Shown piece after piece: positions 6,369-43,990 of a DNA stretch of 64,000 nucleotides. The DNA is from Phycisphaerae bacterium (GTDB lineage: Bacteria; Planctomycetota; Phycisphaerae; SM23-33). The stretch covers positions 30,042 through 94,041 of the forward strand of contig DRGC01000032.1 in NCBI GenBank assembly GCA_011050235.1, in the 5' to 3' direction. Below the pieces are notes generated by a model. The model was given only the letters and a program-made list of their open reading frames with translations. It was not told the origin of the DNA and made no database searches. How positions within the stretch are numbered: the first letter of the stretch is position 1; each line of letters begins with the position of its first letter. The position numbers were made by a program, and so were the translations under genes.

Positions 6369-6393
6369 ATCCGTGTAGATCCAGGAGAACCGA

Positions 6394-8166: not shown

Positions 8167-8189
8167 ACGTCGACAGTTGGACCGGGAAA

Positions 8190-9536: not shown

Positions 9537-9538
9537 CG

Positions 9539-12524: not shown

Positions 12525-12712
12525 GACCCGGCCATGGCCCAATCGACGTCGAACCGCGCCGAACAGCTCGGGCAAATCAGCACGATCCGAACTCCCCCGC
12601 TCTCGCGCCGCACGAACGAGACGTGAAATCCGTTGGTGTAGTCGCACTCGGGGCACGCCCGCAGTTCGTCAGCGATCTCAAGGCGTTTGGGTGTCTTCGC
12701 TTGGCTCATCAT
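12521..12712 (-). CDS. small zinc-ribbon protein (hypothetical)
   Basis: A 63-aa ORF has CPEC...CPSC zinc-ribbon pairs. A GGAAGGA Shine-Dalgarno sits upstream. Its stop overlaps the xthA start (ATGA). Its 5' end overlaps the 3' end of the upstream giant gene by about 35 nt. Confidence 0.45.
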   Translation of the reverse strand: MMSQAKTPKRLEIADELRACPECDYTNGFHVSFVRRESGGVRIVLICPSCSARFDVDWAMAGS

Positions 12713-15700
12713 CCGATCCTTCCGCTGCATCGGTGGCCGGGGCTGGAGTGTCCGCCCCCTCGCCGGGGTTGTGGTCCCACTGACAGATGAAGCCATACGC
12801 CCTCGCAGCCGGCACAGCCCGCCACTTGCCTCGCGTTCTCGGCCCCTCATACGGCACTTCGAACAGGATCGTCGCCGCCGGCGGGCCATAGATGCCGGCC
12901 CCCTCGTTGGTGGTCAGCCAGTTGGTGTAGTCGAGCGCCTTGCCTTGGGCCGTCTCCCACGCTTCGTCGGTTGGTCGGTGCGCGTCGATCCACATCGGCT
13001 GGCTTTGCCGGGTGAACATGGTGGCCAGATCGTTGGTCGCCTGCGAATCGATCTGAATCAGCCGCCCGCCCAGCCGGGCGCATATCTGATGGGCCTGGTC
13101 CCAGGTGACGGCTTCGTAGTAGGCCTTGTACCATTGGCCGCTGTGGCCGATCGCATCGGTGATCGCCCCGGCGGTTTCGGTGACGATCGCATCGAGCCCC
13201 AGTTCGGTCGGCTCGTCGGCGCTATCCCATTCGCACAGGAACACCGTGACGCCCGTGGGCGCGACGTCGTCCCACTCGGCCGCGCCGCCGAAGCCGATCA
13301 GGGCCACGTGCTGATACCCGTCCGTATTGTTCGGTTCGCCCGCAGCCCAGTTGGCATGGGTGACGGGCCGGCCGTCCACCCATCGCCAGTCTCCCTCGAC
13401 CTCGTCGTCGCTGGCCCCGATGAAGGTCAACTGCCCGCCGGCGAGAATAAAAGCGACCGTGTTCTCCTCGTCGCTGTCGATCGTGATCAAATGCCCGCCC
13501 CACGATTTGCAGATGGCCTTGGCCCGCGCCCAGGTGACGCCCTGGTTGAACAGCCGATAGCGATGGCCCTTGTAGATCACATCGTCGCCGCTCACGTCTA
13601 TCGCCAGCCCAGTCGCCTTGCGACGATCGGGCGGGCGGGGATCGTCATCCCACTGGCAGATGAAGCCCAACAGATCCGATTCCCGGGCGGGCTCCCACGC
13701 CCCCGTTCCGCGCCACCCGACGTAGGCGAACGCGTCAGCGGCGTCGACGGCCTCGGCCCCTTGCCGCCAATGGCCGCCCTCGGCGACCCGGCCGTCCAGC
13801 CACTGCCATTTGTCGCGCCCCGCCGGCTTGCTCAGGCCGATCCAGCCGGCCCTGCCGCCCGCGAGGTACAACAGGTAGCTGTTGACCACGCCCGAATCGA
13901 ACACCGCCAGACGCCCGCCCATCGCCTCGCAGCGGCGTTTGGCCTGAGCCCAGGTCAACGGAATGTCGACGTAGCGGTAGTAGCTGCCGCCCAGCTTGGC
14001 GACATCGCCGCCGGGGCGAAGGATGAACTCGGGTAAGGGCTCGCGGGCCAAGGGGGCCGGAGATTCGTCCACACACATGCCGGCCAGGTTGAGCGTCTCA
14101 GCCGTCACCACCCCCAACGCACTGACGCCCTCGCCCATGCGTCCAGCCAGCCCGACAATCGCTCGCCCGTCGCCGCCGAGCGTCTTGCTCACCTCGCCCC
14201 AGCCGTAGACGGCGCTCGTGCGGGCGCTGCCGGCGTCCAGACGCCCGTCGGCCAGAACGCGCATGAACACCACGCTGACGCCTGTGAGAGTTTTGTCGCC
14301 ATGAATGCGCAAGGCCCCGACGGCATAGCCGGCGGGAGCGGCGATCTCCAGCACCTCGCGGTCGCTTCGGCCGGCCGTCGGGCCGAGATGCCGACCCGTC
14401 GGTGTCCGATAGACCGGCTGGATGGTCGTGATCGGCGCATCGGCCGACGCCTGCAGGCCCAGCCGCACGCCCGCCAACCAGCCCGGGCCGCGCAGAACAT
14501 CCTCAAACGGCATGCCCTCGTCGCTGCCGATCGGCGTCGTTCGATCCAATTCGCTCTCGGCCGGCACGTCATCGTAGCCGGCAAACATGGGCCCGGCCGG
14601 CTGGGTCGACGGGTCGCCGACGCCAATCTGTCCCTTGGGCGGCATACGATCCAGTGTGCGGTAGTGAAGGTCTGTGAACTGACAGATCGCACGCCTCCCC
14701 CCCCCGTGACAGGTCAGTGTCAGTTGCGATTCGGAATCGAGCGGCGGATCGATCAGGTCTTTCTTATAGACCACGAGCTTGCCGTTGACATAAATGGCGA
14801 CCTGTTTGTCAAAGATCTGCAGGCAGAAGGCATTCTTTTCGCCCAGCGGAATCATGATCGTCTGACTCCTTTCATTCCGGTTGTTCTCATGATTTCGGTC
14901 GAACCGAACGAGGCCGCTCCGGGAGAAGCTGAGCTTGTAGGATGTCCTTCCGTCGTCGGTCTCCAGGGACAGGCCGCCTTCGCACTTGGTAACCTTCCGG
15001 TCGGGCAAGATCACCTGTCCGTGCACTGAAAAATGCGAGCCCACCGGCTGCGTTCGGGTCAGGCTGACGGCCCCTTTCGTTGCGTCCATCACGATCGCGC
15101 TGCCGGAGCCCCTGCGGGCGGCCCCCCGATCCAGCCGCCATCCGGCCAGGTCTGCACCCCCCGTCAGAGCCTGCCATCCGCCGCCGGCGAGAGTTTCAGT
15201 CTTCACCACCTGGGCCATGGCCTCACGCAGATAGGCCATCACTGCCCCCTCCTGGTGATACTGGCGGGCGATGGCGCGCAATGCTGTGGCGGCCCGGTCA
15301 TAGCGTTCGTTGCGGAAGGCTGCCCGGGCGCGGGCCAGCGCGTCGGCGTGCGGGCCTGTCTCGACGATAATACGCCCCACGGCCACCGGCGCCGCGGTGT
15401 CGGAATCGGTGAAGATCTCCTCCGCCGTCGCCCACCACGGGCCGACGTCGTCCAGATCGAACAGCCACTGCTGCGCTTGGGGCCAGGCGTGCTGCTCGTA
15501 GGCAACGCGAAGGCCCGCCAAGCGGACCCTCGCGGCGAACGAGCCTGTCGCGTGGGTGTCGGCGTAGCGTTGGAACATCCGACGAATCTGGCCCTGTTCG
15601 AGGGAGGGTTGCGACCAGAGCGGCCGCCCCTTGTGCCGGCCGGCGGCGACGATTGCCTGATAGGCGACCAGCGGCACGGCCGTGTCGTATCGCTCGGTCT

Positions 15701-16730
15701 GCAGGCATTGCCCGGCGAAGGTCCGCAGGTCCTCGACGACCGGGCGATTATGGGTGCGCTCGATCATCGCGATGCGGTTAGCGTATGCCGGTGCGTAATC
15801 AAACTGGGCGGCCAGGGCCCGTTCGAACCAGGCATGAGCGTCCCGGCTGTCGTAGAACAGAAGCCCCAGCATCTCGGCCGCCGCCTCGGGCCGATCGGGA
15901 CGGTCGTAATAGGCGGCCTTCAGGAGCCGGCGCGCCTCGGGGTACGCGGGGTGCCGGTCCGACGTGCGCCGCACGGCCACGATGCCGCCACGCTCGTCGA
16001 CGACGCCGACGTGATAACGGGCCGTCAGCATCTTGACCGTCCACGGGGACGAGTCGCTCTGCCGGCCGGACGCTTTGGCGAAACGCCACCTTCCGGCGGC
16101 CCCCAGGTTAGCGAACCATGGGTCGGTCACAATGGCCAGCAGCGCCCGCTGGTCGTCCTGGCCATAGGCCGCGCTGCCGACGGCGCGGAGGAAATGGTCG
16201 TGGGCGATCTCGTCGTAACGCTTGGAGACCGTTGCCTGCCCCCACACTCGCATGAGTCTCGCCAGCCTGGCGGCGGCCGAGCCCGCCAGGAGATCCGGAC
16301 CGGCCGGTCCGTTCAGGTGGGCGACCCCTTCGCGCAGATAGGTCATGGCTTCACCGTCCAAGCCCGTCTCGTCCAGAGCAATACCATACGCCGTCCAGAC
16401 GATCGGGTCGTCGCAGCCGGCGACGAGGAGTTCTCGCCCGGCTGCGGCCAGGTCGTCCCAGGGCGGGGCCTGCGTGGGCACATCACGATGGGCGGCCAGG
16501 CGCGCGGCGACGGCGGCAAGAAAGGCCCGAGCGTCGTCATCCCAGGCGGAATTGGCTTGGCCGCCGGCGGGGTAGGCGTCTGCGAGGTTGCGGGTCCACA
16601 GCGTCTGCCGGCCGGCGACGACGTCGGCCATGCTAACGGTGTTGGGAACGTTGGGGACGCGTTGGCCCCAGGCGGCCGTTGCCCACACGAGAACCAACGC
16701 GACGATTGCGATTGTGTTCTGTCTTGTCAT
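12678..16730 (-). CDS. 1350-aa secreted multidomain protein: signal peptide, TPR-like helical region, DUF1080/LamG-like domain, three tandem C-type lectin-like domains
   Basis: Signal peptide MTRQNTIAIVALVLVWATAAWG. The DUF1080-like stretch is (...GKLVVYKKD). CTLD repeats start at WAQAKRRCEAMGGRLAV, WARAKAICKSWGGHLITI and WDQAHQICARLGGRLIQI. The second CTLD carries EPN...E...WDD. Confidence 0.7.
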   Translation of the reverse strand: MTRQNTIAIVALVLVWATAAWGQRVPNVPNTVSMADVVAGRQTLWTRNLADAYPAGGQANSAWDDDARAFLAAVAARLAAHRDVPTQAPPWDDLAAAGRELLVAGCDDPIVWTAYGIALDETGLDGEAMTYLREGVAHLNGPAGPDLLAGSAAARLARLMRVWGQATVSKRYDEIAHDHFLRAVGSAAYGQDDQRALLAIVTDPWFANLGAAGRWRFAKASGRQSDSSPWTVKMLTARYHVGVVDERGGIVAVRRTSDRHPAYPEARRLLKAAYYDRPDRPEAAAEMLGLLFYDSRDAHAWFERALAAQFDYAPAYANRIAMIERTHNRPVVEDLRTFAGQCLQTERYDTAVPLVAYQAIVAAGRHKGRPLWSQPSLEQGQIRRMFQRYADTHATGSFAARVRLAGLRVAYEQHAWPQAQQWLFDLDDVGPWWATAEEIFTDSDTAAPVAVGRIIVETGPHADALARARAAFRNERYDRAATALRAIARQYHQEGAVMAYLREAMAQVVKTETLAGGGWQALTGGADLAGWRLDRGAARRGSGSAIVMDATKGAVSLTRTQPVGSHFSVHGQVILPDRKVTKCEGGLSLETDDGRTSYKLSFSRSGLVRFDRNHENNRNERSQTIMIPLGEKNAFCLQIFDKQVAIYVNGKLVVYKKDLIDPPLDSESQLTLTCHGGGRRAICQFTDLHYRTLDRMPPKGQIGVGDPSTQPAGPMFAGYDDVPAESELDRTTPIGSDEGMPFEDVLRGPGWLAGVRLGLQASADAPITTIQPVYRTPTGRHLGPTAGRSDREVLEIAAPAGYAVGALRIHGDKTLTGVSVVFMRVLADGRLDAGSARTSAVYGWGEVSKTLGGDGRAIVGLAGRMGEGVSALGVVTAETLNLAGMCVDESPAPLAREPLPEFILRPGGDVAKLGGSYYRYVDIPLTWAQAKRRCEAMGGRLAVFDSGVVNSYLLYLAGGRAGWIGLSKPAGRDKWQWLDGRVAEGGHWRQGAEAVDAADAFAYVGWRGTGAWEPARESDLLGFICQWDDDPRPPDRRKATGLAIDVSGDDVIYKGHRYRLFNQGVTWARAKAICKSWGGHLITIDSDEENTVAFILAGGQLTFIGASDDEVEGDWRWVDGRPVTHANWAAGEPNNTDGYQHVALIGFGGAAEWDDVAPTGVTVFLCEWDSADEPTELGLDAIVTETAGAITDAIGHSGQWYKAYYEAVTWDQAHQICARLGGRLIQIDSQATNDLATMFTRQSQPMWIDAHRPTDEAWETAQGKALDYTNWLTTNEGAGIYGPPAATILFEVPYEGPRTRGKWRAVPAARAYGFICQWDHNPGEGADTPAPATDAAEGSDDEPSEDTQTP

Positions 16731-30619: not shown

Positions 30620-30850
30620 CCGTCATACCTCATGACACACATCGACCCGCCCGGACCGTGGGTTTCGTGGGACCATCATGTAACACATCGGCAAAACGGT
30701 CACCACAAAAAACATTCGCCCCCGCCCGAACCGCGGCCGCCCGTGAGCCGTAGGAACTGCAGCAACTATCGTCGGGGTCGTCCAGTGGGCCGCCCACGCG
30801 CGGCCCGCCCGCCCGTGCAGCGTCGAATAGGACCCGATCGGAGTCAGCGC

Positions 30851-31840
30851 ATGATCGCCAACGTTTTCCAGGGAATGCCGACTCGAGACGTGATGGTCCT
30901 TTTTTCGTTCCTGGCAGCGATCGGCGTGGTCTACGCGGCGACGGGCGTCATTGTGATCCGCTATCTTTGGCGATTGGCGATCGGGTCTAAGAAGCGCCCA
31001 ACGTCCGCTTGGCTGAAGTGGGGCCGGCGGGTCATATTGACTCTGGCCGTGGTGGGCGTGCTCTGCGGCCTGTACGGATGGCTGGTCGAGCCCTATTGGC
31101 TGGAGACGACGCACGCGCAGGCGCCGACCGCCAAGCTGCCGCCAGGCGCCAAGCCGATCCGCATCGTTCACATCAGCGACCTGCACTGCGACCCCAAGGT
31201 CCGCCTGGAAGATGAGCTGCCCCAAGCCGTCGCCGAGTTGAGGCCCGACATCATCTGCTTCACCGGCGATGCGGTCAATTCGCCCGCCGGCCTGGCCAAC
31301 TTCCGGCGATGCATGACGGCATTGGCCAAGATCGCGCCGACCTACGCCGTCTGGGGCAACTGGGAACACTTTTTCCCCACCCTCGACTACTACGGCGGCA
31401 CGGGCGTCCATCTCCTCGACGATACCTCGATCCAACAGACCATCGACGGCCAGCCTGTGACCATTGCCGGAATCCGTCACCGGCGTGACCTTCGATCCGG
31501 CATGCAGCGCGCCCTGGCGAGCATCGAGGGCGAAGGCCCGGTGGTGCTTCTGTGCCACATGCCCAGCATCATTCTCGAGCTGCCCGGCCGGGGTGTCGAC
31601 CTGTGCCTGTCCGGCCACATCCACGGCGGCCAGGTCGCCCTGCCGATCTATGGCGCGATGGTGACACTGACGCCGACGGGCAAGCGTTTCGAGCGGGGGC
31701 TATACAAACATGAGGACACGCACCTGTACGTTAGCCGCGGCTTGGGCATCGAAGGCGGCGGCAACGCGCCGCGCCTGCGATTCTGCGCCCGCCCGGAAGT
31801 GACGCTCATCGAACTGGTCCCCGACCGCCCGGCCCCCTAG
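30851..31840 (+). CDS. membrane-anchored metallophosphoesterase (calcineurin-like)
   Basis: Two N-terminal TM helices. Motifs IVHISDLHCD, FTGDAVN, GNWE and LSGHIHGGQ. It is the only genuine part of the 1343-aa ORF in the track. Confidence 0.7.
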   Translation: MIANVFQGMPTRDVMVLFSFLAAIGVVYAATGVIVIRYLWRLAIGSKKRPTSAWLKWGRRVILTLAVVGVLCGLYGWLVEPYWLETTHAQAPTAKLPPGAKPIRIVHISDLHCDPKVRLEDELPQAVAELRPDIICFTGDAVNSPAGLANFRRCMTALAKIAPTYAVWGNWEHFFPTLDYYGGTGVHLLDDTSIQQTIDGQPVTIAGIRHRRDLRSGMQRALASIEGEGPVVLLCHMPSIILELPGRGVDLCLSGHIHGGQVALPIYGAMVTLTPTGKRFERGLYKHEDTHLYVSRGLGIEGGGNAPRLRFCARPEVTLIELVPDRPAP

Positions 31841-34800
31841 GCCTGTGCGCCCCCTTGCCCCTCAGCCGACGACGTTCGCCGCGGCGCCTTCTGCGGCCAG
31901 GGGAGAATGAAGTCCAGGGCCATGGTCCGCAGCGAGCCCGTCTGCTGGGCGTTGGCGTGACGGCGGGCGATCTTCGCAAACTCCGGGAACCGGGCCTCAT
32001 CGGTATAGAACTCGATCATCGTATGCCCGTCGTCCAAACCGGCCTGTGTCCCATCGCCCAACAGCCAGGGCATCACCCAGCGCCCGTGGAACTCCCGTTG
32101 AATGCCCATGCGCGTGACGGCGAATGTCTCCGGGCTCTTTCGATAGCCAAGGAAGACGGCGACGATCGTCTCGCCCCTGAGCATCACGCGCGGGATGTTC
32201 GGGCTGAACTGGCGAGCCGGCGCCCCGGCCCCGTCGGCAAACCACTGGCGCAGGAACTCGTCCACCTGTTGCCAGGGCACGTCTCCAAGCGGCACGAGGC
32301 GGACGTCCTCGGGGATTTCCTTGCGGCGCCGATAACGGTCGACGATGCCCATGCACAGATCTCTGAACGTCACCCCGTCCATTATGTAGATCGATTCGAC
32401 CGTCGTCGTCTCGAAACTCAGCCGTTCCAGGCATTGCCGGAGCACCACCTGGCTCTCATCCTCGACAAGTGTCGACACCATCCGCTTGGCCCCGCCGGCG
32501 GCCGCCCGGGCCACAGCCGCGCGCATCAGGCGTGTCAGGAGCAGCGCCTCTTGCCCATCGCCCTGGGGAGCATCTGTTTGCTGACGCACGCTCAGTTTCA
32601 ACTTGATCGTATTGCCTGTGGGATCTTGAAGCTGCAGGACCACCGCGCCATGGACGTCGTTGACGCCGGCCGGATGTATCACCAGGACCTCCCGGTTGTA
32701 GGGATCGATGAACGGATTCTCGAACATTTGGCACAGCACGGGTTGATCCGAAGGCAACGTCGGCCGGACGATCCAGGTCGTCTGGCCCGGCGCGCCTTTG
32801 GCGGGGGCCCCCGCTTCGCCTGCGCCAGCCTCCGGCGAGAATGTCACCTCTCGTGCGGCGGCGTTTTCCGCCACGTAGTCGTCCAGGCACTCGTCGGCGG
32901 CGGCCAGGTCGTCGATGAACTGGCGCTGCCACTCGGCAATCTCCCGTTGGGCTTGTTGGATATGAGCATCACTGGCGGGAGGCGGCTCATCCAGGCCGCC
33001 ATCCGTTGAGGCCGACTTGCGCTGTGAAGGGCTGTCCCCGGCCTGCATCCGAGCCAGCGCTTCTTGTGCGGCCGTATGGTTCGGATCGATACCCAAGGCG
33101 GTCTCAAAGGCCTGTTTCGCGCGGTCGCAGTCGCCCAGCTCAGTCAGGGCCCTGCCCAGCGCCACGTGTCCGGCCGGGCGGGCGAAATCCACCCCCACAG
33201 CCTGCAGCGCCGCCTCGGCGGAAGGGGCGAACTGTCCCCAGCGATACAGGGCCTCCGATAGGCCCATGTGGCCCGGCCAGAAACCGGGGGCCAATTCGAC
33301 CGATCGCGTAAAGGCCTCAATAGCCCGCGGCAGGTGATCCGTCAGCAGACAGGCCCGGCCAAGATGGTAGAACAGTTCGGGAATCGGTGGGTCGTCCTCC
33401 GCCGCCTGTTCCAACAGGTCCATCGCCTGGTCGGTCTGTCCGCTGTGCAAGGCGATCAGGGCGGCCATCAACTTCCCGACCGGCTGGTCAGGGAACGACC
33501 GGGCGATCGGCGCCGCCAAGGCGAGGGCCTGGCGGACCTGCCCCCCGACATAGAGCGCGTGCGTTGCGGTCAGGGCCCTGGCTACGTGCAACGGATGGGT
33601 GTAGTACAGGCGAAGCAGCAGCGGCAGGGCCATCCTCTCGCGCGAAGAGCCCAGAAACGTTCGAGCCAGGTTCCACTCACGGTCCGTCCGGACGCCCGTC
33701 GCCGCCCGGTCCGCGTGGGCGGCGAAAAAACCGATCTCCTCGATCCATGAAGCCGGGGCGGCCAGGTGATCCGCCGGCGGGCGATGCGGCGGGGCCTGAT
33801 CCCACGACGCGGCCATCTGGATCGACAAAGGCGGCTGGCTGAAGGCCTCCGTTAGCACTCGCCCGTCCATGTCATCGCCCGGGGCCAGGCCGCACAGATG
33901 CAGAACGGTCGGACAGAGGTCGAGGCTATGGACGTTGTGAATCAACTCGCCTTCGACCACGCCCGGCGCCCGCATGACGAAGATACCTTCGCCTCGATAG
34001 ACCGAATCGAGCGGCATCAGTTGCGCTGCTCTGCGCCGAGGCCGTCGGGCAGGCGGCGCAAAGCTGCAGGCCGAGTACAGCACGATCGCAGCGTCGTCGC
34101 CGGCCAACTCCAACAGCCGTCCGAGGAGCAAATCACACAGCCGCACCGCAGCCGCCGCCACGCCGCTGAACAGTTCAAATCCCCGCATGTCCACCCACGG
34201 TAGGCGCGGGGGATGGTATTTCAGAAACTGCATCCACAACGCCTCAATAGCGGGATAGGTCACCGACGTGACGTCCCAGTCGGTCTTCTCCATCAGCCTG
34301 GTCACGACCGCGTGGATGGACAGGGTCTGGGAGACGATGGCGGCAATGGTCACCAGCCGCGGGTCGTGCGCATCGAACTGCCCGAAACGCGGGACGAACA
34401 GGGCCATCGTCTCGGCATCGATCTCTTCCAGGGAGACGACGAACTCCTTGAGGGATCCGAGATGATTGGCCGGCAGGACGCTGCCGAACGGCACGACGAA
34501 CGATGATTGATAGCTGGCGGGGATGTTTCGGAAGAACTCCGGGCTGACGAAGACACCGTTGACGGGCTCGGCCGGCGCGGTGGCGGGGAAACTGACGACG
34601 TTGCAGCGGCGCCCGCTCTGCGAAACGATCTCCCAGAATGCCTTGGCCCGGCGCGACAGGCTGTTGACGGCCTGCACCGCCCCGTTGCTGCGGACCTCAC
34701 TGGGCCCCAGAACGCCGTGTTTGTCGGCGCGCTTGCCGGTCGCGACGGTGTTATGCACGATCGGAGCGATCAGGGGTCCCTGGGTCAAGGGGGTCCCCAT

Positions 34801-34941
34801 CACCCCCTGGTCGACGAGGCGTTGGAGATTGGGCAACTGCCCGCTATCCAGCATCGGGGTGATCTGGCGCCACCCGGCTGAATCCCAGCCGACCATCAAG
34901 ATCCTGGTGCACTTGGCCTGACTCGAACTCATCATTTGCAT
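31837..34941 (-). CDS. 1034-aa protein: N-terminal AlkP-superfamily NPP/type-I-phosphodiesterase-like domain + TPR repeats + unassigned C-terminal domain (paralog A)
   Basis: ILMVGWDSAGW...TPMLDSGQLPNLQRL...HNTVATGKRADKHGVLG resembles the NPP motif around the catalytic Thr, but the Thr position is not conserved. Central TPR repeats. The C-terminal ~350 aa are unassigned, possibly GNAT-like. Confidence 0.6.
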   Translation of the reverse strand: MQMMSSSQAKCTRILMVGWDSAGWRQITPMLDSGQLPNLQRLVDQGVMGTPLTQGPLIAPIVHNTVATGKRADKHGVLGPSEVRSNGAVQAVNSLSRRAKAFWEIVSQSGRRCNVVSFPATAPAEPVNGVFVSPEFFRNIPASYQSSFVVPFGSVLPANHLGSLKEFVVSLEEIDAETMALFVPRFGQFDAHDPRLVTIAAIVSQTLSIHAVVTRLMEKTDWDVTSVTYPAIEALWMQFLKYHPPRLPWVDMRGFELFSGVAAAAVRLCDLLLGRLLELAGDDAAIVLYSACSFAPPARRPRRRAAQLMPLDSVYRGEGIFVMRAPGVVEGELIHNVHSLDLCPTVLHLCGLAPGDDMDGRVLTEAFSQPPLSIQMAASWDQAPPHRPPADHLAAPASWIEEIGFFAAHADRAATGVRTDREWNLARTFLGSSRERMALPLLLRLYYTHPLHVARALTATHALYVGGQVRQALALAAPIARSFPDQPVGKLMAALIALHSGQTDQAMDLLEQAAEDDPPIPELFYHLGRACLLTDHLPRAIEAFTRSVELAPGFWPGHMGLSEALYRWGQFAPSAEAALQAVGVDFARPAGHVALGRALTELGDCDRAKQAFETALGIDPNHTAAQEALARMQAGDSPSQRKSASTDGGLDEPPPASDAHIQQAQREIAEWQRQFIDDLAAADECLDDYVAENAAAREVTFSPEAGAGEAGAPAKGAPGQTTWIVRPTLPSDQPVLCQMFENPFIDPYNREVLVIHPAGVNDVHGAVVLQLQDPTGNTIKLKLSVRQQTDAPQGDGQEALLLTRLMRAAVARAAAGGAKRMVSTLVEDESQVVLRQCLERLSFETTTVESIYIMDGVTFRDLCMGIVDRYRRRKEIPEDVRLVPLGDVPWQQVDEFLRQWFADGAGAPARQFSPNIPRVMLRGETIVAVFLGYRKSPETFAVTRMGIQREFHGRWVMPWLLGDGTQAGLDDGHTMIEFYTDEARFPEFAKIARRHANAQQTGSLRTMALDFILPWPQKAPRRTSSAEGQGGAQA

Positions 34942-35034
34942 TGACGCCTTCGGTCACCGGACGGGGGGCCGCCGTCACAACCACTGCAGCCGCCGACGGA
35001 TGGCCGGGGAGCGCTCGAGCCAGGCCCGCTGAGG

Positions 35035-38000
35035 CTATGGTTTCTTCTGGCCCGGCTGCGACCAAGGCACGACGATATCCAGTGTCATGATCCACGTCCG
35101 GGCGAGTTCTTTGCCGCCCGTCCGACGGCCGATTCGGATCATGTCAGGAAAGACGCTCTCATCGGCATACAAGTGGATCGTCCGCAGACCGCTGTCGTAG
35201 CCGGCCTTGGCCCCGTAGCCGACAAGCATCGGCGTCGCCCAACCGTTCTGGTATTCGTCCAAGACGGCAAGACGCGGCGAAATCCATATGTCATCTTGCA
35301 CATGACCCACGTAGCCCGCGATGATCTCATCGCCGCGCAGGATCACCAGCGACAGACGCTCATCCAGGCCCAGTCGTCCGGGCCCCACACCGTCGTCGAA
35401 GAAGCCTTGGAAGAACTGGTCGACCTTGTGCATGGGCACATCCCGAAACGACACAACCCGGACGTCGTCTGGGATCACCTGCCGCTGCCTGCAGCGCTCG
35501 ACGACCCTCAGACACCGATCGCGTGTTGCGGCCATGTCCATGCCAAAGACCATCTCGCGTTTCTTGACCCGGAAGCCCACTCGTTCGAGGGATTCTCTCA
35601 GTTGCCCTTGTCCTTCAGGGGAAAAGGCGTACGAGACCGCCGTTGCCCCGGAGGCGACCGCACGAATGATGCCCGCACGAATCAGCGCCCATCGCGCGGT
35701 GTTCTCGTCTAGGCCGACATCGGCCGCCGCGGCGAGGGAGGCGAGATAGGGCACAAGCGCGATGCGCTTGCCGGTGTTGTCGCCTGTCCGCAGGGATACG
35801 GCGCCGATCAATGGGATTTCGCCCTCCCGGTGAAGGACAAAGACGTCATGGCGATGGTGTTCCGTCAGCACCCGGGAGGTGATTTCGCTCACCTGGCCAA
35901 AATCAGCAGGCATGATGGGGCGTACGACAAGCCCCATGTCGGTCAGCATCGGCCCGGATATCTCGCTCGATTCCGCCGGCGGCGCCTGGTCGTCCTGGTC
36001 GGCCAGTTGGCTGGCGTTGGTGGCAAGATACGCATCCAACTGCTGATCCGCTTGTCGGAAGCAGTCGATAAAGTTGTTGGCCCAGATCGAGACCTCTCGA
36101 CGGGCGCCGGCGACACCCAGGCGCAATTGGTCCACATCCCAGCGTGACGGCCCCTCACCGGCCAGGGGCAGGGCGTCCTCCTCTTCGACGTCCTCAAGCT
36201 CCCCACCGGATTGCAGGTGGGCCAGTCGGTTCTTGGCCAGCGTGAAATTCTCATTGAACCTCAGGGCGTTGGCGTAGGCCTGCTTGGCTTGCTCCGGATC
36301 GTCGAGTTTTTCCAGACACATGCCCAGCATATAGTGGGCCGGCGCGCTGGAGAAGTCCACCGACAGGGCCTGCAGCGCCTCGTCGGCGGCCGCTTCGTGC
36401 TCTCCCGACGCGAGGCGCACCCGACTGCGTCCCAGATACCCGGGGATGCAGGTCGAATCGATCTCGATGGCCTGGGTGAAGCAGTCCATGGCCCGGCCCA
36501 GTCGGTGCGCTCGCCGATGGACTTCCCCCAGGTAGAGGTACAACTGGGGGATCGGCGGATTGTCTTTAGCGGCATCCTCGAACAGATCCAGGGCCTCATA
36601 GTCGCGGCCTTCGCTCTGGGCGATGACGCCGGCCATGCACTTCCCAGCCGGGGACTGGCCATGAACGGACACAAAGTTCCGCATGACGGTGATCGCTTCT
36701 TCGGTGAGGCCGTGGAGATATAGCGACTCGGCCACCAACGGCGCCATCTCCGTCCAGAACGGGGTGACATAGTATAACCGGGTCATCAGAGGCAGGGCCA
36801 GATCGGGGCGCGAGGAGTTCAGGCAGGCTTCGGCCTGGTTCCAGTCGTTCTGCATCTGCACCCATAGCGCATTCCGACCGCCATGCGCTGAAGTAAAGGA
36901 CATCTGCTCTGTCCACGGGATCGGCTGGCGGTCCTCGGGCAACGCCGGTCTGACGGGCGGACGTGTCTCCCAGGTCTTGATGGTCTTGGCCTGAGGCAGT
37001 GGTTGAGCGAACGCGTCGGTCAAGACGCGACCGTCCATATCCTCCGGCACGGCGACATTGCACAGGGCCAGCACCGTCGGACAGAAGTCCGTCTCTCGGA
37101 CGCCATGAATCAACTCATCACGTCGCGTGCCGTCGGCCCGCATGACGAAGATGCCCTGCGGCCGATGCAGCTGCGCTTCCGTCCGAGGCCCGGACACTGG
37201 GGTCTGTGACACCCGATGATGCGCCTGATACGCCCGCGGGGAATAGATAATGACCGCGGCATCCTCGCCGGCCAACGCCAGCACGCGCCCCAGAAGCAAG
37301 TCACACAGGCGGACCGAACTGTTGACGACGTCCTTGAACAGGTCGAACTCCTCTGGGTCCACCCAGTCCAGACGAGGGGGATGGTACTGCAGGAATTTTC
37401 GGGAGAACACCTCGATGGCGGGATAGTTGACGCTCATGACGCGCCACTGCGAGTTTTCCATCAGCCACGTCGCCACCGCATGCACGGACAGCGTTTGCGT
37501 CACGGCGCTGGCAATCTGAGCCAGGCGATCGTCACGGAACGACAACTCGCTCATCCGCGGCACGAACAAGCCGACGGTGGGCGGATCCAGATCTTCCAGA
37601 GCGACGATGAACTCCTGAAGCGTCGACGCCAAATCAGCGGGCCAGACACTGTCTTCCGGCACGTGCACCGGGCTCCAACTGCTGGTCCGCTGGCTGCCAA
37701 AGAATGCACGACCGACAAAGCTGCCGCTCGTTTCTTCGGCGGGCTCGGCCGTGGGAAAATTGACCACGTTGCATAGAACGTCATTCTGCGAGAGGATCTC
37801 CCAGAACGCTTTGGCGCGGCGTGATAGGCTTGTGATCGGCCGGAACGACTGCCCGTAGCTGCCCATCTCGTGGGTGCCGAATATGCCATGCTTTTCCGGA
37901 TACTTGCCAGTCGCCAGAGAGGAGTACACCATCGGCTCCATTACAGGTCTGACCGATGTCATCGACCCCATCACCCCTTGCTCGAGGACCCGGGCCAGAT

Positions 38001-38145
38001 TGGGCAGTTCGCCACGGTCCAGCAGAGGGGTGATCACGTCCCAGCCGGCCGCATGCCAGCCAACCAGCAAGACTTTTTGATCCTTCGGATTACTCTTAGG
38101 CGCCACGGTGGTACTCCTGTACGAGGTGCACTCGGCGTGCTTCAT
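35035..38145 (-). CDS. 1036-aa paralog B of the NPP-like/TPR protein
   Basis: Same architecture. LLVGWHAAGW..TPLLDRGELPNLARV...SSLATGKYPEKHGIFG is a very NPP-like block. About 45-50% identity to paralog A over the N-terminal domain, by eye. Confidence 0.6.
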   Translation of the reverse strand: MKHAECTSYRSTTVAPKSNPKDQKVLLVGWHAAGWDVITPLLDRGELPNLARVLEQGVMGSMTSVRPVMEPMVYSSLATGKYPEKHGIFGTHEMGSYGQSFRPITSLSRRAKAFWEILSQNDVLCNVVNFPTAEPAEETSGSFVGRAFFGSQRTSSWSPVHVPEDSVWPADLASTLQEFIVALEDLDPPTVGLFVPRMSELSFRDDRLAQIASAVTQTLSVHAVATWLMENSQWRVMSVNYPAIEVFSRKFLQYHPPRLDWVDPEEFDLFKDVVNSSVRLCDLLLGRVLALAGEDAAVIIYSPRAYQAHHRVSQTPVSGPRTEAQLHRPQGIFVMRADGTRRDELIHGVRETDFCPTVLALCNVAVPEDMDGRVLTDAFAQPLPQAKTIKTWETRPPVRPALPEDRQPIPWTEQMSFTSAHGGRNALWVQMQNDWNQAEACLNSSRPDLALPLMTRLYYVTPFWTEMAPLVAESLYLHGLTEEAITVMRNFVSVHGQSPAGKCMAGVIAQSEGRDYEALDLFEDAAKDNPPIPQLYLYLGEVHRRAHRLGRAMDCFTQAIEIDSTCIPGYLGRSRVRLASGEHEAAADEALQALSVDFSSAPAHYMLGMCLEKLDDPEQAKQAYANALRFNENFTLAKNRLAHLQSGGELEDVEEEDALPLAGEGPSRWDVDQLRLGVAGARREVSIWANNFIDCFRQADQQLDAYLATNASQLADQDDQAPPAESSEISGPMLTDMGLVVRPIMPADFGQVSEITSRVLTEHHRHDVFVLHREGEIPLIGAVSLRTGDNTGKRIALVPYLASLAAAADVGLDENTARWALIRAGIIRAVASGATAVSYAFSPEGQGQLRESLERVGFRVKKREMVFGMDMAATRDRCLRVVERCRQRQVIPDDVRVVSFRDVPMHKVDQFFQGFFDDGVGPGRLGLDERLSLVILRGDEIIAGYVGHVQDDIWISPRLAVLDEYQNGWATPMLVGYGAKAGYDSGLRTIHLYADESVFPDMIRIGRRTGGKELARTWIMTLDIVVPWSQPGQKKP

Positions 38146-38286: not shown

Positions 38287-40266
38287 CTATGGGCCGCGAC
38301 GTTTGTGAAGCTCTGCCCAGTCGTTCGTGAAACTCTTGAGTATAACCGGAAGCAGCAGAGTCGGTTCGACCATATAGCGAAGGATATCATACAAGAAGAC
38401 ATTGGGGCTGGCGCTCGCGTTCCGCAGGCGGAACCGACGGTAGCCGAGGTCGTAGACACGCTTGAGTTCCATGACGGTGAAATTACGGGATCGCGGGCCG
38501 GGCGCCAACCTGGCCCTCGGTGTTGACGATTCGTCTTGACCGCCCTCTGGCGTGCTGCCCCAGGGGGCGTCGTCGTTGACCACGATCTCGATTCGGTCGC
38601 GATCGAGTCTGGCCAGCAAATCCAGATCGAACCCGTCTGAGGGAGATACGGCAACGACGTCGAATCGTTCGGCCAGCGCGTTGTAATGCTCCGCTTGTCC
38701 GCAGCCGCCTTCGGCGATCGTCTTGGCCAGCGATGCCGAGAGCCTCAGCTCCGGATGTCGAGATCGAATGTGATCAGCCAGCACGTCGCTGGCGACCTCT
38801 ACGCCGTTGAGGCGACTTTCGTGATCGAGGATCTCCAGGATGCCATTGCCCGACTCATCGCCAAGATCGGCCGATTGGAGTTGGTGGCTGTTGAAGATGC
38901 AGAACACCCCGATATCCATCTTATTGAAACGCCCAACGACCTCAGCCCACCCCGCCAAGTTCAGCCTGGATCTTGCCGATCGGGGCAGCCCGTTCCAACG
39001 CACCTGAAGTTCACCGTAAACGCCATCGACGCTCGTCTGACACTTGAGCTCTTCAGTCAACACACCAAGGACGTTACGGATCACCTGTCCGTGGGCGGTC
39101 AGGCCCTCGATCGACCAACGACCATCCGGCCATAGCGGATGTCGACCCTCCATTCCGGTCGGCAGGCCGGTTCCAGCCATGATGGCCGGGCCCACGACTG
39201 TCGGCAGGGCTGGCGCAGGCTCTGCGGGGCATGCCTCGACGGCGGTCGACGCGGGGACACCGGTCTTCGCTTCCTGCAGGTGGGCGCGGCGGACATTCCT
39301 GACCGATTCCAGGGCCTGGCGGGTGACTTGGCCTGAAACGAAGGCCTTGAAGATGACGGGCGTAAGGAGTTCCGGCTCGACCGAGAAGCGAAGCAGGTCG
39401 AACAGGAATGTGCCCGGCATGTTCTGACGCCCCTGCAGCTTGAAGCGGCGGAAGCCCATCTCGTAGACCCGCAGCAAATGCGCCATGGAGAAGTTGCAGG
39501 ACCGCACGACCGGCGTAAGCCGCCCCCCGGGCGCTCGGCAGTACTTCTTTCGCGTGTATTCGTACTCCAGATCGGAGGCATCGGGTAATCCGGACTTTAT
39601 CAGCTCCGCCATCACCTGGTAGTCGTTTATGCGGTGCGTGCACAGATAGGCACAGTCCTCATTGACCATGATCTCGGTCTTCTCGCGGTCGAGCTGCTCC
39701 AGCAGGTCATACTCAAACCCGTCATCGGGATGCACCATGACGCCGTCGTACCGCTTCAGGACCGAGCGATAGTAGCCCAAATCGCCGCGCCCCTCTTCTT
39801 CGGTGACTTTGACGATCGAGGCCGTCAGCCTCAACTCCGGGTGCCTTTGGCGAACGTAGTCCAACAGCAGATCACTAGCCAAGATCACACCGTTGAGGCC
39901 CAGACCATTGTCGATGCCCTCCAGCAGCATGTTGCAGTTGGCGTTCGCCAGATCGCTCTTGTCCAGCAAGTGATTGCTGAAGGTGAAGTAAACCCCGATC
40001 CCCACATCGTTGAATGACCGCACCATTGCCTCCAGGGCTTCCGGTGTCGGTACCCGCACGGTGCTGATCCGACCGCAATTCCACGGGACCTCAGGCGCTC
40101 CATGAATGCTGTCAAGATTCAAGTGGCAGCCGTACCGATCCTCAAGGACGCTGTAGACCTGGAGGATCAACTGGTCATGCACGAACAGGCCGGTGAGGTT
40201 CCAGTGCGCCTCCGGCCAAAGAGGATTCCTCGCTTGATAACCGAATGGCAGTGAGTCCGTCATCAC
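38287..40266 (-). CDS. 659-aa protein made of two tandem copies of an uncharacterised ~300-aa module (paralog 1)
   Basis: Module hallmarks are NPLWPEAHWN / HPLWPDGRWS, FNDVGIGVYFTFSNHLL / FNKMDIGVFCIFNSHQL, HPELRLTAS / HPELRLSAS, VNEDCAY / VNDDAPW, RVYEMGFRRFKLQ / RVYDLGYRRFRLR and EPELLTPVIFKAF / EPTLLLPVILKSF. A beta/alpha pattern suggests a TIM-barrel-like fold. Confidence 0.55.
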   Translation of the reverse strand: MMTDSLPFGYQARNPLWPEAHWNLTGLFVHDQLILQVYSVLEDRYGCHLNLDSIHGAPEVPWNCGRISTVRVPTPEALEAMVRSFNDVGIGVYFTFSNHLLDKSDLANANCNMLLEGIDNGLGLNGVILASDLLLDYVRQRHPELRLTASIVKVTEEEGRGDLGYYRSVLKRYDGVMVHPDDGFEYDLLEQLDREKTEIMVNEDCAYLCTHRINDYQVMAELIKSGLPDASDLEYEYTRKKYCRAPGGRLTPVVRSCNFSMAHLLRVYEMGFRRFKLQGRQNMPGTFLFDLLRFSVEPELLTPVIFKAFVSGQVTRQALESVRNVRRAHLQEAKTGVPASTAVEACPAEPAPALPTVVGPAIMAGTGLPTGMEGRHPLWPDGRWSIEGLTAHGQVIRNVLGVLTEELKCQTSVDGVYGELQVRWNGLPRSARSRLNLAGWAEVVGRFNKMDIGVFCIFNSHQLQSADLGDESGNGILEILDHESRLNGVEVASDVLADHIRSRHPELRLSASLAKTIAEGGCGQAEHYNALAERFDVVAVSPSDGFDLDLLARLDRDRIEIVVNDDAPWGSTPEGGQDESSTPRARLAPGPRSRNFTVMELKRVYDLGYRRFRLRNASASPNVFLYDILRYMVEPTLLLPVILKSFTNDWAELHKRRGP

Positions 40267-40441: not shown

Positions 40442-42472
40442 TCACGGCGATTGGCTCGCCTGCAAGCCAGTCCCATCGAGGGCGACGGACGCCTGCTCGC
40501 GCGCCCAGTCGTTCGTGAAGCTCTTGAAGACCACCGGCAGCAGCAGGTTTGGCTCGAGCGTATAGCGAAGGATGTCATACAAGAACAGATTGGGGTTGCG
40601 GCCGGCGCTTTGCAGGCGAAACCGACGATAGCCGAGGTCGTAAACCCGTTTGAGTTCGGCGGTGGTGAAGTTGCGCGATCGGACGTCGGCGTCCAGAGCC
40701 GACATCGGCATCGCCCGGCGGTCGGCCGACCCCTTCGGGGCGCCGTCCGCCGCGCCGCACCACGGGGCGTCGTCGTTGACCAGGATCTCGATTCGGTCGC
40801 GATCGAGTTGGGCCAACAAGTCCTCGTCGAAGCCGTCCTCGCTGCATAGGGCGACCGTGTCGAACCGTTTGGCCAGTGACTGGTAATGCTCCACTCGCCC
40901 GCCGCCGCCTTCGACTATCGTCTTGACCGCCGAGGCCGTCAGCTTCAGTCCCGGATGTCGAGATCGAATGTGATCGGCCAGCACGTCGCTGGCCAGGCCC
41001 ACACCGTTGAGCCCGGATCCGTCATCGAGAATCTCCAGAATGCGATTGCCCATGTCGTCGTTCAGGTCGGCCGATGCGATCCGGGTATCGTTGAACAGGC
41101 AACGAACGCCGACGCCCATGTCATTGAATTGTCGGACGGTCCGAGCCCACAGTTCCATGTTCATTCCGCCCGCCCCCGACTGACGCGCCCCGTTCCAGCC
41201 TGCACCAGGCCCGCCGCCGCACACGCGCTCAACATTCGGGCGACCGTCGAACCGATCGGCCAACAGCGCCAGCATTTCGCGGATCAGACGTCCGTGGGTG
41301 GCCATGCCCTCAATCGTCCAACGCGCATCCGGCCAAAGCGGGTGTCGAGTTTCGGCGCCGGTCGGCAACCCATCGCCGGCCACGACGGGCGCCTGCACGA
41401 TCATCGGGCGGGGGGGCGCCAAATCGCCCTGGCGCGCCTCGTCACCGCCGGCCGCGCGAGCCGCATCGGGCGCCCGCTGGTAGGCGGCCCGGGTCTTGGT
41501 GACCGCTTCGGCGGCCAGACGGCTGACGCGCCCGGAGATGAAGGCTTTGTAAATGACCGGCGCGAGGATGTCCGGCTCGATGGCGAAGCGAAGCAGCGAG
41601 AACAGGAACGTCGCCGGCATGTCTTGTCGCCCCTGCAGCTTGAAGCGGCGAAAGCCCATCTCGTAAACGCGCACCATCTGCGCGGTGGGGAAGTTGCAGG
41701 ACTGAATAGCCGACGTGAGCTTTTTCAGCGGCATGCGGCAATGGCGGCGCTCCATTACCATGTAGGGATTATCGGGCCCGGGGAGCCCGCCCGCCTTCAG
41801 CACCTGGGCCATCACCTCATAGTCCTTGACGCGGTTGGGGCACTGAAAGGCGCAGTTCTCATTGACCATGATCTCGATCTTGTCGCGGTCGAGCTGGTCC
41901 AGCACCTCGCAGTTAAACCCGTCGTCGGGGTGGACCATGACACTGTCGAACCGCGGAAGGACCGACTGATAGTAGGCGACATTGCCGCGCCCGCGCTCCT
42001 CGGTAACCTTGATGATAGAGGCCGTCAGCTTCAGCTCCGGGTGCCTCCGGCGAATGTGATCGTACAGCAGGTCACTGGCCAGGATCACGCCGTTGAGGCC
42101 CAGGCCGTTGTCGATCGACTCCAACAAGCGGTTGCACGCCCGGTCGTCCAGATCGTTCTTGTCCAGCAGGTGGTTGCTGAAGGTGAAGAAGACCCCGATC
42201 CCCACGTCGTTGAATGTCCGGAGCATTGCCTCCAGAGCCTGCGCTGTCGGCGCCGGCGTGAAGCTGAAGCGACCACAGTTCCACGGAACATCCGGCGCGC
42301 CGTGAATGCTGTCGAACTTCAGAGGACACCCGAATCGCTCATGGAGGAGGCTGAACACCTGGAGGGTCAGCAGATCATGGACGAATAGCCCCGTCAGATT
42401 CCATCTGGCCTCTGGCCAGAGAGGATTGCGGGCGGCCAGGCCGGACGGCAATTGGGAAATCATTGGCAACAT
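40442..42472 (-). CDS. 676-aa paralog 2 of the duplicated-module protein
   Basis: About 65-70% identical to 38287..40266 over the first module, by eye. Same two-module architecture. Confidence 0.55.
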   Translation of the reverse strand: MLPMISQLPSGLAARNPLWPEARWNLTGLFVHDLLTLQVFSLLHERFGCPLKFDSIHGAPDVPWNCGRFSFTPAPTAQALEAMLRTFNDVGIGVFFTFSNHLLDKNDLDDRACNRLLESIDNGLGLNGVILASDLLYDHIRRRHPELKLTASIIKVTEERGRGNVAYYQSVLPRFDSVMVHPDDGFNCEVLDQLDRDKIEIMVNENCAFQCPNRVKDYEVMAQVLKAGGLPGPDNPYMVMERRHCRMPLKKLTSAIQSCNFPTAQMVRVYEMGFRRFKLQGRQDMPATFLFSLLRFAIEPDILAPVIYKAFISGRVSRLAAEAVTKTRAAYQRAPDAARAAGGDEARQGDLAPPRPMIVQAPVVAGDGLPTGAETRHPLWPDARWTIEGMATHGRLIREMLALLADRFDGRPNVERVCGGGPGAGWNGARQSGAGGMNMELWARTVRQFNDMGVGVRCLFNDTRIASADLNDDMGNRILEILDDGSGLNGVGLASDVLADHIRSRHPGLKLTASAVKTIVEGGGGRVEHYQSLAKRFDTVALCSEDGFDEDLLAQLDRDRIEILVNDDAPWCGAADGAPKGSADRRAMPMSALDADVRSRNFTTAELKRVYDLGYRRFRLQSAGRNPNLFLYDILRYTLEPNLLLPVVFKSFTNDWAREQASVALDGTGLQASQSP

Positions 42473-42694: not shown

Positions 42695-43990
42695 TTACGC
42701 ACGCTTCCTTCGGTGCAGCAGCCCTACGGCGCCCAGGGCCAGCACAGTCAGCGTGGCCGGTTCGGGGACACCACCAGCGCCCGGTCCCGACGAGCCAAAG
42801 GCCTGCTTAAGAATCGCAAGGTCCGTGGCGTCGATAGTGCCGTCGCCGTTGGCATCGCCGAGCTCGAAGCCGGGCAGGATGGGCCGGCTGCCGTCCTCGG
42901 GGAAGTAGCCTCCGGTCCCGAAGTTCGCCTTCAGGATGGCCAGGTCCGTGCCGTTGACGGACATATCGCCGTTGAAGTCGGGGACGATTCGTATCACATC
43001 ATCCCCAACAAGCTCCGTGCCGTCAAGCAGCTGGCCGGTCAGTTCCAGATCGGTCATTCCCGGCAGGATTCCCAGCGACTGCGTCAAAAACTGCATGACC
43101 AAGTCATCGATCCCATCGTCATTCACGTCCTCGAAGTCGGCCTGCCATATGCCGTTGGAGTTCTGAACGACGTTGGCGTCGTTCAGCTCAACCGTCGACA
43201 CGTCGATGTCAGCCACGTCCAGGTCTTCGGTGCCGAAGATAACAACAGGCGTCTTGCCGATCGACTTGAGGTTGATGGGGTTCTCATCGCTGTCAGGCTT
43301 GATGTCTATGTCTATTGGTATGAACGGCGGCGGGACTTCGCCACCACCGGCATAGACAGCCCGACCGGGAATATCCGAGAACGCGAACTCATTCAACCCG
43401 ACGGCCCAGTACGCCGTCATGCTGATGTCCGCCCAGCCATAGAAGCGGTCGGCGCCGACATCGGCGTACAAGCCGATGGTGCCGCCACCGCCAAAGGGCC
43501 ACTCGCCATGGAACCAGAAGTACCAGCCGCCCAGGCCGCCCGTGTCAGTCACGGAATCATCGGACCAATTGCGACCACCAGCCAACGTGTCGCCGATTTC
43601 GTAGCCTCCGCCAAGCCTGCCGACGTTCCATACATTGCCGCCAGCGACGTAGCCTACGTTGGAATTGGTGCCGTCACCGACCTGAAGGGTCGTGGCGTCT
43701 TTCCGGTCATATCCATACCAATAGAAGTCCTGTTCCTGGAAGGTGAAACTGTCGGCATCCTGCCCTAACGACAGAAGTCCTGTGTTGGCGGTGTTCACCA
43801 CGACCGTCCCGTCCATCTTGAACGAGAGCATGTCCTGTCGCCAGTTGCTCGTGCCGTCCCACCAGCCCGCGCCGCCATTGTTGAAGACGTTCATGGCAGC
43901 GTTGGCGGGAACAGCCTGGGTGGCCAAAACGGCCGCACCAGCCGCCAGGGAGTAAGCTCCCAGCTTCTTTGCTAAATTGCCTTTTCTCAT
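42695..43990 (-). CDS. PEP-CTERM protein with dockerin-like Ca-binding repeats
   Basis: Signal peptide. Two DxNGDGxIDxxDLAILKxxFG repeats of dockerin/EF-hand type. The C-terminus is VPEPATLTVLALGAVGLLHRRKRA (PEP-CTERM). Confidence 0.65.
   Translation of the reverse strand: MRKGNLAKKLGAYSLAAGAAVLATQAVPANAAMNVFNNGGAGWWDGTSNWRQDMLSFKMDGTVVVNTANTGLLSLGQDADSFTFQEQDFYWYGYDRKDATTLQVGDGTNSNVGYVAGGNVWNVGRLGGGYEIGDTLAGGRNWSDDSVTDTGGLGGWYFWFHGEWPFGGGGTIGLYADVGADRFYGWADISMTAYWAVGLNEFAFSDIPGRAVYAGGGEVPPPFIPIDIDIKPDSDENPINLKSIGKTPVVIFGTEDLDVADIDVSTVELNDANVVQNSNGIWQADFEDVNDDGIDDLVMQFLTQSLGILPGMTDLELTGQLLDGTELVGDDVIRIVPDFNGDMSVNGTDLAILKANFGTGGYFPEDGSRPILPGFELGDANGDGTIDATDLAILKQAFGSSGPGAGGVPEPATLTVLALGAVGLLHRRKRA

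Follow-up and report, generated by a model that had tools for sequence, protein, structure and literature searches.

To our knowledge, catalytically dead members of the alkaline-phosphatase (AlkP) superfamily are poorly documented in bacteria, and our literature searches found no paper describing one in the branch covered by the Pfam family PF01663 (Phosphodiest). The nearest functional analogy that we can name is PbgA/YejM (LapC), whose AlkP-superfamily domain has an established regulatory role exerted via the TPR protein LapB and whose residual enzymatic activity is debated (PMC7576196). A second point of reference is the U32 pair UbiU and UbiV, a heterodimer whose two subunits each coordinate a 4Fe-4S cluster with four conserved Cys (PMC6747719). 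Here we describe two adjacent genes, A and B, of a Phycisphaerae bacterium (assembly GCA_011050235.1, contig DRGC01000032.1, positions 30,042 to 94,041; this stretch of 64,000 nucleotides is called the window, and its own numbering is used below). Their products are, with high confidence from sequence comparison, pseudo-phosphodiesterases, in which a PF01663-type domain that has lost its catalytic residues is followed by a TPR region and a tandem GNAT module. We consider it probable that these non-catalytic binding or scaffold domains deliver an acyltransferase module, probably to the product of an adjacent gene, a PEP-CTERM protein. The dead-AlkP/TPR/GNAT proteins (A, B and relatives) are called Y, their U32-like partner X and the PEP-CTERM protein P. 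The two genes and their modules are:

31837..34941, minus strand: paralogue A, an open reading frame (ORF) of 1034 aa with the architecture of B
33742..34908, minus strand: probably dead PF01663-type domain of A (aa ~12-400), from Pfam and profile alignment
31888..32772, minus strand: tandem GNAT module of A (aa ~724-1018), from the GNAT profile match
35035..38145, minus strand: paralogue B, 1036 aa, with a probably dead PF01663-type domain, TPR, long helix and tandem GNAT
36946..38076, minus strand: probably dead PF01663-type domain of B (aa ~24-400), from Pfam and profile alignment
36211..36825, minus strand: TPR region of B (aa ~441-645), from Pfam TPR profiles
35995..36144, minus strand: single ~50-residue helix of B (aa ~668-717) that links TPR to GNAT, helix 29-78 in the model of the 640-1036 fragment
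35077..35931, minus strand: tandem GNAT fold of B (aa ~739-1023), from the AlphaFold (AF2) model and Foldseek

An initial annotation of this DNA had described A and B as NPP-like paralogues with Glu or Ala in the place of the catalytic Thr and, in B, His in the place of the first metal-binding Asp, and had proposed that they are binding scaffolds or enzymes of altered chemistry joined to TPR platforms. The strings on which it relied translate as written, namely EPMVYSSLATGKYPEKHGIFG (37876-37938, minus strand, B aa 70-90), APIVHNTVATGKRADKHGVLG (34705-34767, minus strand, A aa 59-79) and VGWHAAGW (38041-38064, minus strand, B aa 28-35). PF01663 matches B with 50.7 bits and A with 40.3 bits against a gathering cutoff of 23, and the match, which spans profile positions 2-223 of 342 only, is on these scores far above chance. 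A single-sequence phmmer search of the B N-terminus against the PDB gave at best E 0.5, to the phosphonoacetate hydrolase PhnA, and was replaced by a family profile. The first 480 residues of A and B were aligned with the same region of 120 database relatives, and the register profile was drawn from both groups present there, the Y clade and a set of sister proteins. The profile of 15 family N-terminal domains matches PhnA (3szy, E 6e-6) and the Xanthomonas NPP (2gsn, E 2e-4); its nucleophile column falls on the Thr of PSFTNPNN in PhnA (where the residue is Ala in 3t02) and of PSLTFPNH in NPP, and its SD[HR]G column on ADHG in 3szy and SDHG in 2gsn. The nucleophile and ligand columns thus hold in an alignment to two solved structures, the register first proposed is unshifted, and an alignment artefact is rejected. 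A formylglycine (FGly)-sulfatase reading is rejected as well, given that the sister motif L-S-P-M-L-W does not fit C/S-x-P-x-R and that the best PDB profile matches are PhnA and NPP. The term NPP-like is correct for the PF01663 fold and not for the NPP/autotaxin branch proper, as A and B belong to the cytoplasmic, Ser-nucleophile branch of PF01663 that carries the JGI name 'predicted AlkP superfamily phosphohydrolase/phosphomutase'.

In the sister proteins the former-site positions read D, D, S, D, H, D, H, H, each in 91-92 of 92. The corresponding residues are H31, G34, E70, E245, R249, P303, R304 and H327 in B, and D20, G23, A59, E233, M237, A291, C292 and Y315 in A. The nucleophile of P-x-x-[TS], Ser in 92/92 sister proteins, is therefore replaced by E70 in B and A59 in A, as first noticed, and the first metal-site Asp (G-x-D-G/A) is indeed H31 in B; it is D20 in A, and the clade has D12/H5/N5/K2/Q1/S1 at this column. 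The D-x-x-x-H ligands (D/H in 91/92 sister proteins) have become E245/R249 in B and E233/M237 in A, the S-D-H-G turn (D in 92/92, H in 91/92) reads S-P-R-A in B and S-A-C-S in A, and the last His, of the H-R motif, is retained as H327 in B and is Y315 in A. Only one of the seven canonical nucleophile and ligand positions is kept in B (the last His) and one in A (the first Asp), next to a conservative Asp-to-Glu change. The substitutions noted at the outset are accordingly real, and their extent had been understated, since six of seven canonical positions are replaced in each paralogue, not one or two. Because A and B each fail five of the six defining catalytic features of PF01663 enzymes, with the nucleophile and most metal ligands gone from both, annotation as phosphodiesterases or 'alkaline phosphatase family' enzymes is unsuitable and should be avoided.

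The comparison with orthologues extends this loss to the whole clade. All 28 full-length (~1000 aa) relatives lack the catalytic set; among the 26 of them that cover the nucleophile column, Ser is found in none and Thr in one, and the DH pair is throughout P or A followed by R, W or C. The clade is monophyletic with respect to three representative sister proteins in a neighbour-joining tree built without bootstrap. As far as these sequences go, the loss of the nucleophile and of the ligands at the two metal sites is ancient and dates from the ancestor shared by the whole clade. A B-type subclade of 13 proteins has the replacements E, E, R, P, R, H almost fixed, and in the A-type subclade the residues vary at these same positions. 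Given the unshifted register and the absence of the nucleophile and of most metal ligands, the original proposal that A and B may be pseudo-phosphodiesterases is well supported.

The sister proteins (P0029-P0120, 'AlkP superfamily phosphohydrolase/phosphomutase + TPR (+ sulfotransferase)'), from Planctomycetota, Verrucomicrobiota and Acidobacteriota, were defined as relatives that cover only ~60% of B. They share 30-44% identity with A and B over the AlkP and TPR modules in the same domain order and likewise adjoin P-like PEP-CTERM proteins. Their invariants (91-92/92) are G-W-D-A-A-D-W, the Ser of P-x-L-S-P-M-L-W-x-S-I-A-T-G, D-x-x-x-H, S-D-H-G and the final H-R. Their catalytic residues are all in place, and behind the TPR they have a sulfotransferase or no further domain; A and B are dead and end in a tandem GNAT. 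A HMMER scan with a GNAT profile over 1.84 billion representatives returned 268 relatives, about two dozen of them fused and Y-type, with most being standalone proteins of 275-315 aa. Further fused forms (P0142-P0153, P0184, P0199, P0221, P0229) all have a degenerate AlkP site, including P0199, which lacks the TPR, and P0229, which has the GNAT at its N-terminus. P0184 (969 aa, AlkP-TPR-tandem GNAT) is an intermediate that keeps D, D, S and the last H, with D-x-x-x-H changed to N/R and D-H to A/S. The catalytic set is complete in all 92 non-GNAT relatives, whether these carry a sulfotransferase or nothing at the C-terminus. In the sequences compared, the dead site is thus coupled to tandem GNAT fusion, and at least three architectures agree in this, although the counts are not phylogenetically independent. 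One further GNAT-profile match, P0156 (1952 aa), consists of 15 near-identical ~130-aa tandem repeats that each match the first GNAT lobe, which makes it an unusual repeat protein or else an artefact of assembly.

The unfused components can also be found side by side. In one locus (L018) a standalone tandem GNAT homologue (309 aa, profile E 1e-14; 6314..7243) is followed by a P-like protein (7269..7952) and a live AlkP-TPR-sulfotransferase (8001..10670), an order which suggests three separate genes of this kind as the origin of the fused, dead form. The P-like protein of this locus has a variant sorting tail with PTPEN instead of VPEP. In another (L019), two PEP-CTERM P-like proteins lie immediately upstream of a live AlkP-TPR-sulfotransferase.

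In mean pairwise identity the dead domain exceeds every other module, at 61% among B-type, 50% among A-type and 48% among all proteins, against 42-52% for TPR, 32-52% for the GNAT lobes and 26-39% for the linkers. It also shares several non-ligand motifs with the live sister group, namely A-T-G...K-H-G, R109, W115, P-A-E and D-x-x-P-T (D353-x-x-PT). Motif retention and the highest identity of any module together mean that the fold is strongly constrained for something besides bimetal hydrolysis. A pseudogene or decay is rejected for the window: neither ORF is interrupted, and no module is better conserved than the dead domain; A and B are complete three-module proteins maintained by selection. 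By homology to NPP, the former-site residues must cluster within a few angstroms, and in the B-type proteins a fixed Glu/Glu/Arg/Arg/His network would replace the two metal sites, either as a salt-bridged plug or as a pocket for an anionic ligand. The same facts could be read as a new enzyme, in which the B-type domain is metal-independent and Glu70/Glu245/Arg249/Arg304/His327 form a new catalytic apparatus (for example with Glu as nucleophile or general base and Arg-stabilised anionic substrates), with A as a non-catalytic partner whose pocket has eroded. That the replacements are near-invariant in the 13 B-type proteins and variable in A-type, that the domain is the most conserved module and that many non-ligand motifs lining the pocket are kept from live relatives would all agree with this. 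It is nonetheless unlikely, since we found no precedent for metal-free catalysis in this fold in the literature, and since the Pro at the metal-binding Asp of SDHG and the Gly at the second Asp of GWDAADW look like filling in and not like rebuilding. Moreover, the A-type proteins and distant fused forms (P0146, P0153, P0199, P0221) have unrelated residues at these positions, so that any new chemistry would be confined to one subclade.

The fusion to a TPR platform was seen correctly at the outset, as TPR_2, TPR_1, TPR_8, TPR_14 and TPR_19 score above cutoff in A, B or both (aa ~450-645); the NCBIfam matches to PrsT and MamA are sub-threshold and driven by the TPR, and were not accepted as membership. 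The initial annotation identified the phosphodiesterase-type and TPR parts and overlooked the C-terminal ~300 residues, which form a tandem GNAT. Structure predictions covered this module and X. The AF2 model of B 640-1036 (pLDDT 86) has the 50-residue helix followed by two alpha/beta lobes, and its top Foldseek matches in the PDB are the tandem GNATs MAB_4324 (4e-14), 3tt2, VipF, 2wpx and MshD, with almost all of the top 50 matches being GNATs. Pfam GNAT families gave no match in full-length A or B (E<=0.1) nor in the C-terminal fragment of B (E<=10), and weak Acetyltransf_6 matches were found in 8/18 members (best 2.6e-4). The second lobe is the better conserved of the two.

The whole protein might be non-enzymatic, a scaffold or regulator built of dead AlkP, TPR and dead tandem GNAT, perhaps working as an A:B heteromer that transfers no group and whose task is to organise or regulate either X or the way in which the PEP-CTERM protein is exported or anchored. 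This would account for a CoA-loop motif that is non-canonical in every member, for the lack of a Pfam GNAT match in either paralogue with weak matches in 8/18 members only, and for the tandem Y copies in two lineages (the window and the locus L009); the second half of X is Cys-less too, so degenerate modules would recur in the cassette. We regard it as improbable because conservation in the second GNAT lobe is good (41-52% identity) and R, W, T, G and D positions near the customary donor site do not vary, and because standalone tandem GNAT homologues are widespread (most of the 268), which is easier to explain for an enzyme. In our preferred reading the GNAT module is taken as a candidate acyltransferase.

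The conserved partner genes were likewise overlooked initially, and together with the GNAT they give the dead domain a functional context. Three of them lie directly upstream of B:

38287..40266, minus strand: X2 (659 aa), directly upstream of B, two U32-like TIM-barrel halves, of which half 1 has 4 invariant Cys
40442..42472, minus strand: X1 (676 aa), a paralogue of X2 with 60% identity to it
42695..43990, minus strand: P (431 aa), the first cassette gene, with signal peptide, ~220-aa domain, dockerin repeats and PEP-CTERM signal

X1 and X2 are each an internal duplication and belong to a very rare family (19 clusters in 5.8 billion sequences). X has no Pfam match, U32 included, at E<=0.1, and it shows the U32 TIM-barrel fold. 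In half 1, C49, C207, C211 and C245 are invariant in 18/18 members, and half 2 lacks the four Cys in 13/18, both window copies included; X is a candidate for [4Fe-4S] cluster binding. In the locus L007, four single-domain X genes that keep the Cys follow Y. P scores above cutoff against PF07589 (24.0 bits, cutoff 20.7) and TIGR02595 (20.5 bits, cutoff 16), and ends in a PEP motif, a hydrophobic helix and a basic tail (...GGVPEPATLTVLALGAVGLLHRRKRA). Its ~220-aa domain has no Pfam match and recurs, at 42-52% identity, in homologous PEP-CTERM proteins of L004 and L006; these lack the dockerin insert and, like P in the window, are encoded immediately upstream of X. In L009 that position is taken by an unrelated, apparently frameshifted PEP-CTERM ORF (5808..6710). 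In each of the five loci examined, namely the window, L001/L010, L004, L006 (with three X copies) and L009 (X-Y-Y), a B-type Y has X immediately upstream, and A and B belong to a conserved P-X-Y cassette. Tandem Y copies occur in the window and in L009, with a second paralogue that differs in L009. Most of the related loci are metagenome-assembled genome (MAG) or metagenome contigs.

The association with PEP-CTERM proteins could be incidental, with X and Y acting on a small molecule or polysaccharide, for instance by acylation and hydroxylation of an exopolysaccharide or lipid precursor, and with the dead domain binding a nucleotide-type moiety such as the 3'-phospho-ADP part common to coenzyme A (CoA) and 3'-phosphoadenosine 5'-phosphosulfate (PAPS). 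Nucleotides are typical ligands of the NPP fold, live sister proteins have PAPS-dependent sulfotransferases as fusion partners, and the live system of L018 lies among acyl-CoA metabolism genes. PEP-CTERM systems are classically tied to exopolysaccharide loci (PMC1569441). This is nevertheless very unlikely, since three distant loci have one and the same ~220-aa P domain encoded immediately upstream and live relatives too are flanked by P-like proteins, since TPR modules usually bind proteins or peptides, and since no glycosyltransferase or polysaccharide export gene is present in the window cassette.

In the reading that we favor, that of a non-catalytic docking platform for an acyltransferase, the dead domain and the TPR would serve for recognition or docking rather than hydrolysis, and would position the C-terminal tandem GNAT, the sole candidate catalytic part, and perhaps X as well, on the target. 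That target would most likely be the exported PEP-CTERM protein P before its export, or a precursor made for P, and it would be a substrate of the neighbouring X too, a tandem U32-like protein that probably binds [4Fe-4S]. A and B may act together; L009 likewise has Y in tandem, albeit with another second paralogue. The specific substrate and chemistry in this scheme are put forward tentatively.

Several observations weigh against this scheme. X and Y appear to be cytoplasmic and P is exported, hence any modification would have to come before export. The second-lobe loop of the GNAT, which sits between strand 4 and helix 3 and has W and T conserved at >=90%, reads R-x-x-W-A-T (Y-Q-N-G-W-A-T in B) and not the CoA pyrophosphate-binding R/Q-x-x-G-x-G/A, and the acyl donor is therefore uncertain; the GNAT may depend on a different donor or have no activity either. 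Instead of a plug, the conserved E/E/R/R/H set could form a new active site. A-type relatives are not always found beside X (L008), and single-domain X relatives occur without Y in L011 and L013-L015. In L009, which is a single MAG, both Y copies have an in-frame stop, and our literature searches found no paper on the dead-AlkP/TPR/GNAT family. The L009 MAG belongs to Candidatus Brocadiia and has the cassette order PEP-CTERM, X, Y, Y; the stops (TAA at 11171-11173 and TAG at 14501-14503), one in each Y copy, lie at differing positions in or just after the TPR region. These stops, together with the frameshifted PEP-CTERM gene, may reflect an assembly error, real decay or split expression.

A more far-reaching version of the docking scheme can be put forward as speculation, to which we would give a rather low probability: in Planctomycetota and related bacteria, P, X and Y may constitute a hitherto undescribed cassette by which a family of PEP-CTERM surface proteins is matured in the cytoplasm. 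The dead domain would then, with the TPR, act as a 'reader' that binds the precursor or a phospho- or sulfo-ester which marks it, the fused tandem GNAT would acylate the precursor and the tandem U32-like Fe-S protein would modify it without oxygen. The live AlkP-TPR-sulfotransferase relatives would represent a sulfating version of the same machine, and selection would have favored the loss of hydrolysis after the module had become joined to a CoA-dependent transferase.

As for the gene models and surroundings, both ORFs lie at exactly the coordinates of the initial annotation, with 93 bp between them and a full-length identity of 39%. A and B appear to be cytoplasmic, judged by the absence of a visible signal peptide. 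B is identical to the public LCGC14_0525250 ('hypothetical protein', marine sediment metagenome), annotated with a later start (1023 aa), and A corresponds to LCGC14_0525240 ('hypothetical protein', marine sediment metagenome; 1019 aa), which is 15 residues shorter; both public models begin after the longest-ORF starts (34896..34941 and 38107..38145). The longer start of A is more likely, because the public start cuts the conserved first beta strand (R-I-L-M-V-G-W-D). A gene neighbouring A and B has a public record from a Phycisphaerae MAG. The stop codon of A (31837..31840) overlaps by 4 bp with the end of a convergent plus-strand calcineurin-like metallophosphoesterase gene (~30750..31840). 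The surroundings in the window are housekeeping genes (leuS, pyruvate kinase, AdoHcy hydrolase and mnmG), and no exosortase was found among the larger window ORFs scanned, with several smaller ORFs lying outside that scan. A second, unrelated small PEP-CTERM ORF is located at 3171..3875 on the plus strand (tail ...GPIPEPATMSLLALGGLALLRRKSKTP), and 12678..16730 on the minus strand encodes a 1350-aa protein with three C-type lectin domains (Pfam Lectin_C, 5.6e-34), which is unusual in bacteria. Membrane-anchored 'sulfatase + TPR' genes (~624 aa) were considered as cassette members and dropped, as the family profile does not match them and they have no homologue in the window. One such sulfatase-type AlkP and TPR gene adjoins the cassette in L001 (5595..7469) and three do so in L007 (7678..13267), with intact-looking D-T-C...T...D-H motifs.

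Taken together, A and B represent a pseudoenzyme of known fold in a new architecture and in a new conserved cassette. They provide a clean natural experiment, in which the AlkP-TPR chassis is live with a sulfotransferase or nothing and is dead yet best conserved when fused to the tandem GNAT, and a testable case of a hydrolase becoming a binding module, with the metal sites of the B-type apparently replaced by a fixed Glu/Arg/His set. Three uncharacterised families, the dead-AlkP/TPR/GNAT proteins, the tandem U32-like Cys-rich TIM barrel and the ~220-residue PEP-CTERM domain, become linked to PEP-CTERM proteins, which bears on the question of whether and how these proteins are modified before or during exosortase processing. 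Public names in this family are 'hypothetical protein' or 'alkaline phosphatase family protein', and the latter should not be taken as implying activity.

Compared with the known systems, A and B share with NPP (2gsn) and PhnA (3szy) the block P-x-x-[T/S]-x(6)-A-T-G-x(5)-H-G and the S-D-H-G turn, column for column, but they have Ala or Glu at the nucleophile, have lost the D-x-x-x-H and D-H ligand pairs, are apparently cytoplasmic and are joined to TPR and GNAT modules. With the tandem GNATs MAB_4324 (7q3a), MshD (1ozp), VipF (6wqb) and the clavulanate protein (2wpx) they have in common the two-lobed fold (Foldseek E 4e-14 to 1e-10, probability 1.0) and, as usual for this class, a degenerate N-terminal lobe with a better-conserved C-terminal one. 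They differ from these in having only 9-15% identity to them, no Pfam GNAT match and the loop R-x-x-W-A-T, and in that the module sits behind AlkP and TPR via the 50-residue helix. X resembles a fused version of the UbiU/UbiV heterodimer with one half degenerate, although it has no Pfam U32 match, its Cys spacing differs (C-x157-C-x3-C-x33-C) and its two units are in one chain. PbgA/YejM, finally, belongs to a different, sulfatase/LtaS-like branch and is periplasmic, membrane-anchored and part of an unrelated pathway.

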